This document shows positions 35,659 to 40,591 of a DNA stretch of 64,000 nucleotides, one piece after another. The stretch covers positions 9,514 through 73,513 of the forward strand of contig JAHJME010000035.1 in the NCBI GenBank assembly GCA_018821435.1, in the 5' to 3' direction. How positions within the stretch are numbered: the first letter of the stretch is position 1; every line of letters begins with the position of its first letter. Origin of the DNA: Alphaproteobacteria bacterium. GTDB lineage: Bacteria; Pseudomonadota; Alphaproteobacteria; Caulobacterales; Caulobacteraceae. The position numbers and the translations under genes are program-made. The notes beneath the pieces were generated by a model. That model had not been told where the DNA came from. It worked only from the letters and a program-made list of their open reading frames with translations, and ran no database searches.

Positions 35659-37200
35659 ATGGCGGCGCGCGTGGTGACCCTGGCCTTCCGGGGCGTCGAG
35701 GCTGTGCGCGTCGATGTCCAGGTTCAGTTCACCAGCGGCGAGCAGAAATTCTTCCTGGTCGGCATGGGCGACAAGGCGGTGTCCGAGAGCCGGGAACGGG
35801 TGCGCGGCGCCTTCCAGGGCATGGGCTTGGCCCTGCCGTCGCGGCGGATCATCGCCAACCTGGCGCCCGCCGACCTGCCCAAGGAGGGCAGCCACTACGA
35901 CCTGCCCATCGCTCTGGCGATCATGGCCGGCATGGGCATCATTCCGCCTGACGCGCTTGAGGGTTGGGCCGCCGTGGGCGAGCTGGCCCTGGACGGGCGG
36001 ATCACGCCGGTGACCGGAGCGCTCCCCGCCGCCGTGGCCGCGGGCGGCCTGGGGTTGGGCCTGATCTGTCCCGAGGCCTGCGGACCCGAGGCCGCCTGGG
36101 CCGGCGACACCCGCGTGCTGGCGGCCCCGTCGCTGATCGCCCTGGTGAACCACTTCCGCGGGACTCAGATCCTGTCGCAGCCCAAGGCCGGCGACATGCT
36201 GGACGGCGAGCGCGTCCCCGACCTGCGCGACGTGAAGGGCCAGGAGAACGCCAAGCGGGCGCTGGAGATCGCCGCGGCCGGCGGCCACAACCTGTGCTTT
36301 GTCGGCCCGCCGGGCTCGGGCAAGTCGATGATGGCGGCGCGGCTGCCGGGCCTGCTGCCGCCCCTGACGCCGGGCGAGCTGCTCGAGACCTCGATGATCC
36401 ATTCGGTCGCCGGCCTGATCGCCAAGGGCCAGCTCAGCCGCGCCCGGCCGTTCCGCACGCCGCATCACTCCGCCAGCATGGCGGCGCTGACCGGCGGCGG
36501 GCTGAAGGCCAAGCCGGGCGAGGTCAGCCTGGCGCACAACGGCGTCCTGTTCCTGGACGAACTGCCGGAGTTCGGGGCCCAGGCTCTGGACAGCCTGCGC
36601 CAGCCCATCGAGACCGGCGAGGTGGTCGTGGCCCGGGCCAACGCCCACATCCGCTATCCCGCCCGCTTCCAGCTGGTGGCGGCGATGAACCCCTGCCGCT
36701 GCGGGCACGGCGGCGCCGGCCGGGGCGCCTGCGGGCGCGCGCCGCGCTGCCAGACCGACTACCAAAGCCGCATCTCGGGTCCGCTGATGGACCGCATCGA
36801 CCTGCAGGTCGAGGTGCCGCCGGTCACCGCCGCCGACATGGCCCTGCCCGCGCCGGCCGAGGGCACGGCCCAGGCTTCGGCCCGCGTGCTCACCGCCCGG
36901 GCGATGCAGGCCGAGCGGGCGGCGGGAACGGACGGCGCGCCGCTGAACGCCCTGGCGGAGGGCGACTTCCTGGAGACCATCGTCGATCTGGATCCGCCGG
37001 CTCGCGCGCTGCTGGCCAAGGCGGCGGAGCTGGGCGGCCTCTCGGCGCGCGGCTGGACCCGCACCCTGCGCCTGGCCCGCACCATCGCGGATCTGGAGGG
37101 TTCAGGCCCGGTGCGGCGCGTCCATGTGGCCGAGGCGCTGATCTATCGCCGCGTGGCGCCGGGGACGTCGTTGGGTTCGAGCGCGTCGATCTCAGCGTAG
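35659..37200 (+). CDS. comM: YifB/ComM Mg-chelatase-like AAA+ ATPase
   Basis: ESRERVR, NLAPADLPKEGSHYDLPIAL, GPPGSGKSM, PFRTPHHS, LAHNGVLFLDELPEF, RISGPLMDRIDL. Confidence 0.92.
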   Translation: MAARVVTLAFRGVEAVRVDVQVQFTSGEQKFFLVGMGDKAVSESRERVRGAFQGMGLALPSRRIIANLAPADLPKEGSHYDLPIALAIMAGMGIIPPDALEGWAAVGELALDGRITPVTGALPAAVAAGGLGLGLICPEACGPEAAWAGDTRVLAAPSLIALVNHFRGTQILSQPKAGDMLDGERVPDLRDVKGQENAKRALEIAAAGGHNLCFVGPPGSGKSMMAARLPGLLPPLTPGELLETSMIHSVAGLIAKGQLSRARPFRTPHHSASMAALTGGGLKAKPGEVSLAHNGVLFLDELPEFGAQALDSLRQPIETGEVVVARANAHIRYPARFQLVAAMNPCRCGHGGAGRGACGRAPRCQTDYQSRISGPLMDRIDLQVEVPPVTAADMALPAPAEGTAQASARVLTARAMQAERAAGTDGAPLNALAEGDFLETIVDLDPPARALLAKAAELGGLSARGWTRTLRLARTIADLEGSGPVRRVHVAEALIYRRVAPGTSLGSSASISA

Positions 37201-37616
37201 CGTTTCGGGGCGGTCAGCGAGCCGTATGCGATGGCGGCGATCACCATGTAGCTCCAGATGATGCCGGCGGTTTGATAGGCCCAACCGCTGACGCCCGCGT
37301 CTAGCGCGCGCGCAATGTGAGTGAGGACACCCAGTAGCTGAAAGCCGGCGGCGAAGAGTGGCCAGAAGCGTTCGCTACGCAGGGCAAGCACGACCAGGAT
37401 GCCCAGCAGACAGGCGTCGATTATCAGGACGGGCCATTGGATGTCTTCGCTATGCGAGCGGAACACCACAAGCGTAAGCGCCCAGGCGGCCAGGTAGACA
37501 CCGGCGGCCAGACGCTCCTGATCACGGCCCCGCCAGACGGCCAGCACGCAGGTGGCGATCACGGCCGAGGGCCAGACCCAAGGGGGTAGCTGATACAAAT
37601 CTGAGCCCTCGGTCAC
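37143..37616 (-). CDS. Hypothetical multi-pass membrane protein (start may be TTG 37598)
   Basis: About four to five hydrophobic segments, RFWPLFAAGFQLL motif. The 3' end overlaps comM convergently. Confidence 0.75.
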   Translation of the reverse strand: MTEGSDLYQLPPWVWPSAVIATCVLAVWRGRDQERLAAGVYLAAWALTLVVFRSHSEDIQWPVLIIDACLLGILVVLALRSERFWPLFAAGFQLLGVLTHIARALDAGVSGWAYQTAGIIWSYMVIAAIAYGSLTAPKRYAEIDALEPNDVPGATRR

Positions 37617-37700
37617 CCGAGAGCTCAGTCTGGCAGAGGCGCTCCGTAGTTGGAACCTCCAGCGACTCGCCGCGAAGACGAGCCGCCATCGTCGGGGCTT

Positions 37701-38063
37701 TTAGGATGCGATACGCAGGTTGCGCATGCGGACCCGCTCGGTCTCCATGCCCTGCGGCGGCGGCTTATCTCCACCTTCGCCGGCCATCTTCACCGCGCCC
37801 AGGCCGATCTGGCCCTGAACGACGCTGAGTTCCTTGTGGGTCTCGACGATGGCCCGGCGGGCTTCGGCGAGGGCCATGATGGCCTGGCTGGCGCGTTCGA
37901 CCGCATCCTGACCGATCAGCGCCGAGGCGCCGGCGGCCTTGCGAAGGTTGGGCATGACGCCCGCCAGCATCGCGGTTTTCGAGAGGGCCATGTCGATCGC
38001 GGATTCGGCTTCGAAGAGGGCGCCAGCGACTTGTTCGGCGGCCATACGGCGTTCTTTGAGCAT
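37701..38063 (-). CDS. Hypothetical alpha-helical protein, 120 aa
   Basis: GGAGAG RBS, Ala/Glu-rich helical pattern (MLKERRMAAEQVAGALFEAESAID...), Gly/Pro-rich tail. Confidence 0.8.
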   Translation of the reverse strand: MLKERRMAAEQVAGALFEAESAIDMALSKTAMLAGVMPNLRKAAGASALIGQDAVERASQAIMALAEARRAIVETHKELSVVQGQIGLGAVKMAGEGGDKPPPQGMETERVRMRNLRIAS

Positions 38064-38133
38064 GAGTTCTCTCCATGCGCGGCGTGGATCACGGCGCGCC
38101 GATAATTGTTTCAGAACAGGGTTTCTTGGCCGT

Positions 38134-38886
38134 TCAGGCCTTTAGTAAATTCGCCGCCAGATCGTTCAGATAGTGGAGCCCGGCCAACATCCCCCCGAAG
38201 GCGAGGGCGGTGACGAGGGCAATCCCCACGATCGCGCCGATCCTGAGCGCGGGGCTCAGGTCGTTTCTGCGGCTCCAAGCTCCGGCTCGCCCTTGAAGTT
38301 CTCGTCCAGGAGAACCCAGGTCAGGCAGAGGATTTCGCGGAGCACCATTTCCGGCGGCTTGAAGGGCGCCAGTTTCCGGGTAGCCGAAACCAGGTGCCGC
38401 GCCATGTCCGCCTGCGTCGACGTCGCCGCCAGATCGACGAGCTGCCGCTCGAGCTGCGTCCAGGAGAAGCCGGGAAGAAGTTCCTCCCGCTTCGCCAGAG
38501 CCGGCCAACGCGCTTCGAAGTCGTCGATCTCCCGGCGAAGGCGGAGCGCCCTCCCAATCACCGCTCTGTTCTCGAAGTTCGGTTGCTGACCCATCGGACG
38601 CCCCATCTGTTGCCGGCTCATCGAGCCAGTTCGGGGCGGGCCTGTCTGTCCTGATCGCGTCCTGTCCTGACGCGATCAGGACAGGTTTCACCTCGACGTC
38701 GCGCAGAATCTTCGCCGCCTTGAAGCGGTCGTCGACGCCCAGCTTGCGGCGGGCGCGGTCGCAGTAGGTGTCGACGGAGGTCTTCGACATGCCCAGTTCA
38801 CGGGCAATCTGCTTGGAGCTCAGATGCTGGTCCACGAGGCGCAAACAATCGCGCTCTCGTTGCGTCAAAAGCTCCACAGGGTTCAT
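38134..38886 (-). CDS. LuxR-type HTH regulator with long linker and C-terminal TM helix (start ATG 38886 or TTG 38898)
   Basis: LTQRERDCLRLV...SSKQIARELGMS..SVDTYCDRARRKLGV LuxR/GerE HTH; hydrophobic tail LRIGAIVGIALVTALAFGGMLAGL. Confidence 0.8.
   Translation of the reverse strand: MNPVELLTQRERDCLRLVDQHLSSKQIARELGMSKTSVDTYCDRARRKLGVDDRFKAAKILRDVEVKPVLIASGQDAIRTDRPAPNWLDEPATDGASDGSATELREQSGDWEGAPPSPGDRRLRSALAGSGEAGGTSSRLLLDAARAAARRSGGDVDAGGHGAAPGFGYPETGALQAAGNGAPRNPLPDLGSPGRELQGRAGAWSRRNDLSPALRIGAIVGIALVTALAFGGMLAGLHYLNDLAANLLKA
38256..38621 (-). CDS. Hypothetical protein nested within the LuxR gene (+1 frame); possible starts 38621, 38606 or 38594
   Basis: Protein-like composition. In 38281-38400, 33 of 39 codons end in G/C in this frame versus 15 of 40 in the LuxR frame. 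Confidence 0.75.
   Translation of the reverse strand: MSRQQMGRPMGQQPNFENRAVIGRALRLRREIDDFEARWPALAKREELLPGFSWTQLERQLVDLAATSTQADMARHLVSATRKLAPFKPPEMVLREILCLTWVLLDENFKGEPELGAAETT
38646..38684. repeat. Perfect 16-bp inverted repeat inside the LuxR CDS
   Basis: ctgtcctgatcgcgtc - 7 nt - gacgcgatcaggacag. Confidence 0.85.
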
Positions 38887-39049
38887 GACGCCCCCCAAAG
38901 CGCACTACGGACCACTCGCCCTAGTAAACGACGGGTTTCGCCCCGCGTCTACTTTACCGGCGGGAAAAGGCCGCTTCGCGTTGTTTTGTAGCAGCCGGCG
39001 GCCCGAGCTTGACCGACCGTTAAGTCGTTGGCCCTAAGCCTTCCGCGTC

Positions 39050-40591
39050 ATGCGCAGACCCTCTCGCCCCCTATCCGAGCGCCGGCCCAACCGCGCCCAG
39101 ATCAGCGCGGAACAGCTCGCCTCGCTCAGCCATGAATTCCGCACGCCCCTGAACGGCGTGCTGGGAATGGCCCGCCTTCTCGAAGGCACGAAGCTCACCG
39201 CCGAGCAGAAGTCCTATGTCGCGGCGCTCCACGACAGCGGCCAACACCTGTTGACCCTGGTCAACGACGTCCTCGACTACGCCAAGCTGGGCGCGGGTCG
39301 TGTCGAGCTGCATCCCGCGCCGATGGAGGTGGAGAGCCTGCTGCGCGGCGTGTCCGAGCTGCTGTCGCCCCGCGCGCGCGAAAAAGGCATCGAGATCGCC
39401 TGGGCGGCGCCCGCGACGCCGGCCGCGGTCCAGGCCGACGAGGGCCGCCTGCGCCAGATCCTGCTCAATTTCGCAGGCAACGCCGTGAAGTTCACCGAGA
39501 CGGGCGGCGTGCTTATCGCCGCCTCGGTCCCGAAGCCCGGCCGCCTGCGCCTGCGGGTCGAGGACACCGGCCCCGGGGTCTCCCAGTCCGACCGCGAACG
39601 GATCTTCGAGGAATTCGCCCAGGCCGAGGCCGCGCACGCCGACCTGGGCGGCGCGGGCCTGGGCCTGGCCATCGCGCGCCGGCTGGCGCACGCCATGGGC
39701 GGCGAGGTCGGTGTCGACACCGCGCCCGGCGGCGGCGCCTGTTTCTGGTTCGAGGCTTCCTTCCCGGCCGTCACGGCGGCGGTCCCCGCCCGCGCCCTCG
39801 AGGGCCGCATCATCGGCGTCGCCTCGCCCAACCCCATCGTCCGCGAGGCCGCCCGGCTGCAGATCGAGGCCTGTGGTGGCGAGATGGTCGCCACTTCCGC
39901 CCTGCCCGAGGCCATCGCCCGCACCAAGCCGGGCGACGTGATCCTGGTCGACGCCGCGCTGGCGACACCCAACGGCACGCTGCGCCCGCCGCTGCAACGC
40001 CACGCCATCGTGCTGCTGGCGCCGGACGAGCGCGACCGCATCGCCCGATACCGCCGCGCGGGCTTCGCCGGCTATCTGATCAAGCCGCTGCGCCGCGCCT
40101 CGCTGGCCGAGCGGGTGTTGATCGCCGCCGGCGCCGTCGCCGATCCCACCCAGCCGCTGCAGGTGGACGAACGCGCCACCAGCGCCGCCGCGCCCGGCGC
40201 ACGGATCCTGCTGGTCGAGGACAATCCGATCAACGCCCTGCTGGCCCGCGCCCTGCTGGCCCGCGAGGGCTGCGAGGTCGAGCACGCCATCGGCGGGACC
40301 GAGGCCCTGGCCGCCGTCGAGGTCGAGGCTTACGACCTGATCCTGATGGATATGCGAATGCCCGGCCTGAACGGCGAGCAGACCGCCCGCAAGATGCGCG
40401 AGAATGGCGTGAAGACCCCGATCGTGGCGCTCACCGCCAACGCCTTCGAGGACGACCGTCACGCCTGCCTGGCCGCCGGCATGGATGACTTCCTGGTCAA
40501 GCCGCTGTCGCCCGACGCGCTTCGCGCCGCCCTCACCCGCTGGACCGGGCCCGCCTTTACGAAGCCTGCGGCGCGCGCCAAGTTCGGCTGA
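39050..40591 (+). CDS. shkA: Cytoplasmic hybrid histidine kinase, ShkA-like (HisKA-HATPase-pseudoREC-REC)
   Basis: No sensor domain; SHEFRTPLNG at the N-terminus; degenerate REC1 with GYLIKPLRR; canonical REC2 (LLVEDN, LMDMRMP, ALTAN, VKP); 513 aa; next to comM/gshB as in Caulobacter. Confidence 0.8.
   Translation: MRRPSRPLSERRPNRAQISAEQLASLSHEFRTPLNGVLGMARLLEGTKLTAEQKSYVAALHDSGQHLLTLVNDVLDYAKLGAGRVELHPAPMEVESLLRGVSELLSPRAREKGIEIAWAAPATPAAVQADEGRLRQILLNFAGNAVKFTETGGVLIAASVPKPGRLRLRVEDTGPGVSQSDRERIFEEFAQAEAAHADLGGAGLGLAIARRLAHAMGGEVGVDTAPGGGACFWFEASFPAVTAAVPARALEGRIIGVASPNPIVREAARLQIEACGGEMVATSALPEAIARTKPGDVILVDAALATPNGTLRPPLQRHAIVLLAPDERDRIARYRRAGFAGYLIKPLRRASLAERVLIAAGAVADPTQPLQVDERATSAAAPGARILLVEDNPINALLARALLAREGCEVEHAIGGTEALAAVEVEAYDLILMDMRMPGLNGEQTARKMRENGVKTPIVALTANAFEDDRHACLAAGMDDFLVKPLSPDALRAALTRWTGPAFTKPAARAKFG

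Follow-up and report, generated by a model that had tools for sequence, protein, structure and literature searches.

The locus occupies the minus strand of the window (the whole stretch of 64,000 nt that was analysed, 70% G+C). It consists of an outer gene, A, which encodes a LuxR-type regulator, an inner gene, B, which lies within A in the +1 frame on the same strand, and two further genes, D and E, which follow A (Table 1).

Table 1. Features of the A/B locus and of the genes that follow it, in window coordinates
Feature	Coordinates	Strand	Description
Outer gene A	38134-38898	minus	Open reading frame from TTG 38898; 254 aa; GerE HTH, linker and C-terminal helix
GerE/LuxR-type HTH of A	38710-38871	minus	Residues 10-63; Pfam PF00196
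Conserved element TGTCCTGA-N5-TCAGGACA-N8-TCAGGACAGAC	38644-38684	minus	Inside the A coding sequence; encodes VLI.SGQD.IRTD
Shine-Dalgarno-like GGGG	38601-38604	minus	6 nt upstream of the B start
Inner gene B	38256-38594	minus	Frame A+1; 112 aa; predicted four-helix protein; ATG kept in 30/30
CTGA overlap of A Leu codon and B stop	38256-38259	minus	CTG in motif RNDLS; B stop TGA
C-terminal membrane helix of A	38167-38241	minus	Residues about 220-244; hydropathy, AF2
Gene D	37701-38063	minus	120 aa, predicted helical; second gene of the A(B)-D-E module
Gene E	37143-37616	minus	Third in the A(B)-D-E module; 157 aa, multi-pass membrane protein

The 254-aa LuxR reading frame described in the earlier note is present as reported. 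Translation of A likely starts at the ATG at 38886 (38134-38886), giving 250 aa as in annotated homologues, which are recorded as LuxR regulators of 250-256 aa, for example in Phenylobacterium zucineum HLK1. The N-terminal HTH that the note had recognized matches PF00196 in a Pfam scan with 48.1 bits (cut-off 23.5; E = 9e-13), which makes it LuxR/GerE-type, and is modeled by AF2 with a pLDDT of about 95. Some homologues bear an NCBI name that makes them response regulators, a designation that we reject for A: there is no match to the receiver domain PF00072 in Pfam or NCBIfam, the HTH already begins at residue 10, and NarL-type models align to A through their HTH part only (model positions 153-208). 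A quorum-sensing LuxR was likewise considered and rejected, the autoinducer-binding domain PF03472 being absent from the Pfam scan. The linker behind the HTH comprises about 140 residues and is predicted to be disordered, in keeping with the tether that the note had proposed; AF2 gives residues 74-207 a pLDDT below 50 and no secondary structure. A C-terminal helix at residues 212-249 is predicted with moderate confidence (pLDDT 72-80), and the tail reaches a Kyte-Doolittle 19-residue maximum of 2.0-3.2 in all 30 loci. With one hydrophobic helix within the last ~40 residues and no N-terminal signal, A has the layout of a tail-anchored protein, and its membrane insertion is predicted. The tail motif RNDLS..RLG.I..IA..SALAFG..LAGL is common to sphingomonad homologues; because it is kept in sphingomonad HTH-linker-membrane helix proteins that have no B, the sequences identify the HTH and the tail of A as a single protein family. 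A hybrid histidine kinase gene (39050-40591, plus strand) lies divergently about 150 bp upstream of A, a position kept in most of the Phenylobacterium loci examined and not in other genera. A sigma-70 promoter scan of 37600-39100 gave zero matches.

That a complete gene is nested in the +1 frame, at 38256-38621, was the central claim of the note. The open reading frame is there (minus strand, 121 aa), and its start has to be moved inward, to the conserved ATG at 38594, which gives the protein of 112 aa. The ATG at 38621 is missing in several species, and in three (L002, L044 and L069) in-frame stops lie between 38621 and 38594. The ATG at 38594 is found in 30/30 Phenylobacterium species, and the base preceding it varies while the ATG itself is constant. 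Public gene calls yield the same 112-aa B. A Shine-Dalgarno-like motif is present within -18 to -5 of the B ATG in 44 of 45 distinct upstream sequences, compared with 15% of random genomic windows, and the Caulobacter copies of B have the start region GAGGAAGGA-N7-GTG. B thus has initiation signals independent of those of A, a conserved ATG or GTG together with a Shine-Dalgarno-like motif. Single-sequence folds often pair the Shine-Dalgarno window of B; a conserved stem that hides it was not supported, as RNAalifold found zero consensus pairs in the fixed-length region.

Which of the two frames is under selection changes along the gene. The GC3 profile peaks in frame A over the HTH, in frame B from ~38630 to 38270, and in frame A again over the tail. 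The codon-bias switch was already visible in the single sequence, and the counts given in the note for 38281-38400, 33/39 G/C-ending codons in the nested frame versus 15/40 in the LuxR frame, were reproduced exactly; after the nested stop, 33/39 codons of the LuxR frame end in G or C. Per-position entropy was calculated from a codon alignment. Over both the HTH and the tail the wobble position of A is the most variable, bearing out the claim that the two flanks of the outer gene are selected. Between 38568 and 38284 the entropy of the B codon positions instead follows the order b3 > b1 > b2, b3 being the first position of A codons and b2 the wobble position of A. With b3 the most variable and b2 the least, amino-acid selection in the overlap acts on B. 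At the two junctions, 38643-38570 and 38298-38254, all codon positions are variable. B protein identity among congeners is 51-88% and is above that of the A linker in every relative, which together with the entropy order confirms the purifying selection on the inner frame that the note had supposed. The 4-fold sites of B are as divergent (0.43) as those of neighboring genes (0.41-0.51), so the A linker is free of amino-acid constraint except for the avoidance of stops. Its lack of stops and the conservation of the tail are the two grounds on which translation of the linker is inferred.

The avoidance of stops in frame A requires a careful baseline in a genome of this composition. Of the 113-codon windows in the genome's own genes, 62% are open in the -1 frame, so an open frame A in one sequence alone is not beyond chance. 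Long off-frame reading frames are common in this 70% G+C genome; one of 446 aa (35964-37304, plus strand) lies inside the 513-aa gene at 35659-37200. We therefore used the -1 frame of three neighboring genes in the same 30 Phenylobacterium loci as a same-phylogeny control. These control frames contain 110 stops in 13,264 codons and are open in only 11/30, 15/30 and 5/29 loci. Frame A across B has 0 stops in 3,505 codons in the 30 congeners, where 29 would be expected, and is open from HTH to tail in 30/30, while the +1 frame of B is normal with 110 stops. Pooling 143 distinct B loci from 13 genera gives 14,924 codons with 0 stops in frame A, compared with about 124 expected from the neighboring genes and 432 in the other (+1) frame of B. 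The bias can be seen at the level of single bases: T at b3 before GA/AA/AG codons occurs in 0/825 cases versus 9.4% elsewhere in B, and 2.5% in a genome-wide control. Chance openness of frame A is thereby ruled out by the same-phylogeny controls, and the outer frame does stay open through the relatives, as the note required of a dual-coding gene, far beyond expectation.

The two genes also meet at the end of B. The stop codon of B overlaps the conserved Leu codon in the RNDLS motif of A, and across the 143 loci the A codon at this position is CTG in 62, CTA in 75, TTA in 5 and ATG in 1, and never GTG or TTG. CTA or TTA is thus used in 80/143 loci (56%), compared with 1.2% of the Leu codons of the genome. 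With either of these codons the next base, G or A, completes a TAG or TAA stop in frame B, a direct mark of double constraint. Another candidate is disposed of by these codon counts, namely that the membrane tail has its own start or is translated by termination-reinitiation at the B stop: the A codon there is CTG, CTA or TTA in 142/143 loci, which excludes a separate start codon for the tail. One Phenylobacterium species (L012, G024:C40:250068-250424) has a TAG in place of a conserved Glu of B (EIDDF*AKW), with frame A open; either its B is a pseudogene or this is a sequencing error.

The nested arrangement is widespread within the Caulobacteraceae. The window itself comes from a Phenylobacterium. 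B is present in 30/37 Phenylobacterium genomes, and in all 30 the HTH and the tail share a frame with B in the +1 frame. A scan of species-representative genomes with a 14-sequence B alignment recovered 80 loci in Phenylobacterium and Caulobacter, 79 of which have HTH and tail in one open frame spanning B; the exception stops at a contig end. A profile search of the family found B in 54/151 genomes and 13/27 genera, often in two copies, and a class-level search found it in 2/401 genomes, both Caulobacteraceae. In 30/30 strong and 19/20 weak loci, B is spanned by a -1-frame reading frame that encodes a LuxR HTH before B and a hydrophobic tail after it. Identity of B falls to about 30% across the Caulobacteraceae, and the B proteins comprise 138 cluster representatives and 468 members, annotated mostly as a 112-aa 'hypothetical protein'. 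Depending on the pipeline, the locus is annotated either as the 250-aa regulator or as that 112-aa protein. All 143 loci examined are nested, and the stand-alone homologues of the inner protein that the note had suggested looking for are not among them. An assembly or sequencing artefact, which the note had named as a possible undoing, is excluded, because more than 140 assemblies, independent of one another, show the same A/B/A succession of frames.

The product of B is predicted to be a compact cytoplasmic four-helix protein. From a 60-sequence alignment AF2 gives four helices with a mean pLDDT of 92 and a pTM of 0.78, so that the same DNA yields a pLDDT of 92 when read in frame B and below 50 when read as the A linker. 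B has no relatives in Pfam, NCBIfam, PADLOC or a PDB sequence profile search, and a Foldseek search of the PDB for structural relatives returned a best E-value of 0.79, which was not credited. B may act with A, D or E, perhaps as the anti-activator or partner of A that the note had proposed.

Upstream of the B start, and within the coding sequence of A, Phenylobacterium loci contain a conserved nucleotide element with 27 invariant positions, the wobble positions of both frames included. It is made up of an inverted repeat and a third direct half-site. The first GTCCTGA heptamer begins 88 nt upstream of the B ATG in 29/30 species, as follows from an extract that runs from 4 nt before this heptamer to 15 nt past the ATG and measures exactly 107 nt in those 29. 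Pairing in the 8-bp stem reaches 99.6%, and one of its pairs covaries (UA22/CG6/UG1); in 80 further loci this pair is T-A in 51, C-G in 11 and T-G in 3. The element folds with -61.5 kcal/mol (z = -5.0). An alternative 13-bp pairing was discarded, being only 86.7% paired and equalled by shuffles; the 8-bp stem is better supported. The element occurs only once in the genome, at this locus, and it is absent from Caulobacter loci. A repeated operator was also rejected as an explanation of the palindrome, since it occurs nowhere else in the genome. The element could be an RNA signal or hairpin for the expression of B, or it could be an operator.

How would one stretch of DNA yield both proteins? 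Ribosomes that enter at the 5' start of A would read frame A through to 38134, and their product would be a tail-anchored LuxR-type regulator in which some 140 disordered residues tether a cytoplasmic HTH to a C-terminal membrane helix. A second set of ribosomes would initiate at the internal Shine-Dalgarno motif and the ATG at 38594, in frame A+1, and produce B, which would end at the TGA lying across the conserved Leu214 of A. In the overlap, amino-acid selection bears almost only on B, and the sole demand on A would be that its frame stay open, because the HTH has to remain joined to the membrane anchor. That two functional proteins, A and the nested B, are encoded here is in our judgment highly probable, and the dual-coding locus put forward in the note is upheld by the open frames, the selection in frame B, the start signals, the stop codon and the predicted fold; translation of both products is what this pattern of conservation points to.

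Three other explanations have to be weighed against two separately initiated proteins. Programmed frameshifting would join B to its host, as an HTH-B fusion through a +1 shift, a B-membrane helix fusion through a -1 shift where B ends, or an HTH-B-membrane helix protein through both. Genes expressed in this manner, such as dnaX, the orfAB pair of IS3-family elements and prfB, have a conserved shift site and give fusion or truncated products, and they resemble A/B in that two frames of one mRNA region are in use. A fusion would account for why B is never found outside A and why its stop always coincides with one and the same A codon, immediately ahead of the membrane helix, and the strong conserved hairpin upstream of B in Phenylobacterium could be counted in its favor. 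This hairpin, however, is 5' rather than 3' of the putative shift zone and is absent from Caulobacter, and a -1 slippery heptamer (X XXY YYZ) was not found in B in 29/30 species. Both junctions, where a shift would have to take place, are variable at all codon positions. The A/B locus differs from the known frameshift genes in that a shift site was not found, that the inner frame starts from a conserved ATG or GTG with a Shine-Dalgarno motif of its own, and that the outer frame is kept open; a fusion has no need of this, yet there are 0 stops in 143 loci. Three database proteins (P0144, P0207 and P0189) do contain HTH and B in one frame, but we rejected them as natural fusions: all are singletons, and P0144, the only one examined, comes from a metagenome-assembled genome (MAG) and owes its fusion to an indel of a single base within B, which disrupts both genes. 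We regard frameshifting as very improbable. An artificial fusion of this kind is annotated in a MAG record as a 225-aa 'helix-turn-helix transcriptional regulator' (L166 197-874; GCA_020852035.1, JADZBR010000070.1), in which a one-base indel in the middle of B joins HTH and B and leaves the tail one frame further on.

The remaining explanations each dispense with one of the two genes. If B and a short HTH protein were the only real products, frame A would be open merely through GC-rich composition, and the tail would be unjoined or a micro-protein. The 62% baseline, the abundance of long off-frame reading frames such as that of 446 aa inside the 35659-37200 gene, and the lack of amino-acid constraint in the A linker all fit such a view. 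It fails to account for the absence of stops (0 versus 29 expected in 30 loci, and 0 versus about 124 in 143), for a tail that is under frame-A purifying selection without a start codon of its own, and for the homology of this tail to that of sphingomonad proteins whose HTH, linker and tail belong without ambiguity to a single gene; the chance that it is correct is slight, a shade below that of frameshifting. Conversely, A might be the only gene, with the signal in frame B arising secondarily from constraints that act on A or at the RNA level, and with a 112-aa product that is absent or non-functional. In favor of this, B has no known domain and is interrupted by the nonsense codon of one species (G024/L012). 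Side effects of A would nevertheless not make b2, which is the wobble position a3 of A, the least variable position and b3 the most, the signature of selection in frame B. Nor would they raise B identity above that of the A linker in every relative, conserve the start, Shine-Dalgarno motif and stop of B at the cost of rare A codons, or produce an alignment that folds with a pLDDT of 92 in frame B from DNA that encodes a disordered linker in frame A. We consider this explanation just as improbable as a gene B with an unjoined tail.

With a protein predicted to fold encoded inside a tether predicted to be disordered, the A/B pair can be set beside several known arrangements. The embedded spanin genes Rz and Rz1 of phage lambda encode two products that work together, the inner one being a lipoprotein. 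Like Rz1, B lies wholly within its outer gene on the same strand in the +1 frame, has its own start and is inherited with its host as a unit. Unlike Rz/Rz1, the A/B pair belongs to a chromosomal bacterial operon rather than a phage, the overlap falls in a disordered tether, and B is predicted to be a soluble helical protein of 112 aa instead of a lipoprotein. By analogy, Rz/Rz1 may serve as a model for the hypothesis that B is a partner of A. In Bacillus subtilis, comS is a cellular gene nested out of frame on the same strand inside srfAB, with an internal start. The E. coli gndA frame inside gnd is likewise a same-strand, out-of-frame nested ORF with an internal start (PMC11230408). The products of comS and gndA are 36-46 aa long and of narrow distribution, whereas B has 112 aa and a confident predicted fold, and is conserved together with its host frame in no fewer than 13 genera, with several paralogues in each genome. 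Longer bacterial overlapping genes, olg1/olg2 of P. aeruginosa and nog1, pop and laoB of E. coli, have been described as non-trivial overlaps for which overprinting has been proposed and which annotation pipelines exclude (PMC8850804, PMC4683798, PMC7103648, PMC5810103). They are antisense, mostly young and taxonomically narrow, and are supported by expression data with weak conservation; A/B, in contrast, is same-strand, family-wide and old, and the evidence for it is very strong conservation. Our literature search found no description of the A/B locus.

Annotation pipelines handle a long out-of-frame overlap in a cellular genome as an artefact, and the bacterial cases published so far are for the most part young, antisense and disputed. 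The evidence for A/B comes from conservation and is unusually clean: B carries the amino-acid selection, frame A stays open and rare codons are forced upon A. If B was born de novo in the tether and then locked to its host, a proposal taken up below, A/B would be among the clearest cellular, non-viral cases of an old and conserved same-strand nested pair, and a natural test case for disordered linkers as nurseries of new folded proteins. The case would also indicate that a second protein, and a folded one, can be encoded inside a disordered tether, and it exposes an annotation problem, as pipelines record one of the two products.

The age of B relative to its host can be judged from the operon in which it lies. 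Of the 50 family-level loci, nearly all have D downstream of A, as do sphingomonads, and the order A(B)-D-E holds for nearly all Caulobacteraceae loci. Neither D nor E has a credible match in Pfam, NCBIfam or PADLOC. The module, a tail-anchored LuxR regulator followed by a helical protein of ~120 aa and a multi-pass membrane protein of ~150 aa, has the composition of an uncharacterised membrane signalling unit. It occupies 37143-38898 in the window (L163 3001-4557 and L165 3001-4619 in sphingomonad loci) and is present as several paralogues per Caulobacteraceae genome and also in the Sphingomonadales. The shorter LuxR-membrane helix homologues without the insert, which the note had suggested seeking, were found in this order. 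Proteins of Rhizorhabdus wittichii (198 aa) and Polymorphobacter fuscus (225 aa) have, like A, the HTH and the tail motif RNDLS..RLGWI..IA..SALAFG, and D-like and E-like genes lie downstream of both, as they do at A. The sphingomonad linker is unlike that of A: it is shorter, is under frame-A selection and has its own motif, YQSxIYQxP. The B profile matches none of the frames of the Rhizorhabdus and Polymorphobacter linkers. Since the sphingomonad homologues keep the A-D-E operon without B, the module is older than B. As these outgroups have A without B and zero stand-alone B homologues occur among the 143 loci, B probably arose by overprinting of the linker, when the A-D-E operon already existed, in the ancestor of the Caulobacteraceae; it would then have been carried along in every paralogue. 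Alternatively, B may have been lost in the outgroups. That B is a well-folded family born de novo by overprinting of the tether, and locked to its host through paralogue expansion because it acts directly on the regulator that its host encodes, or on D/E as partners of that regulator, is a proposal we advance tentatively, giving it a little less than an even chance. A/B is a dated candidate for de novo gene birth. The conserved Leu-Ser of the tail motif (CTG AGC) is a ready-made stop in the +1 frame and may have set where B ends. In Rhizorhabdus wittichii (L163 3001-3597) the linker read in the +1 frame stays free of stops for ~135 codons, up to the TGA that RNDLS supplies there too, and shows no similarity to B. 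The multi-copy A(B)-D-E membrane signalling module is here defined in the Caulobacteraceae and Sphingomonadales, and it is amenable to genetics in laboratory strains of Caulobacter.
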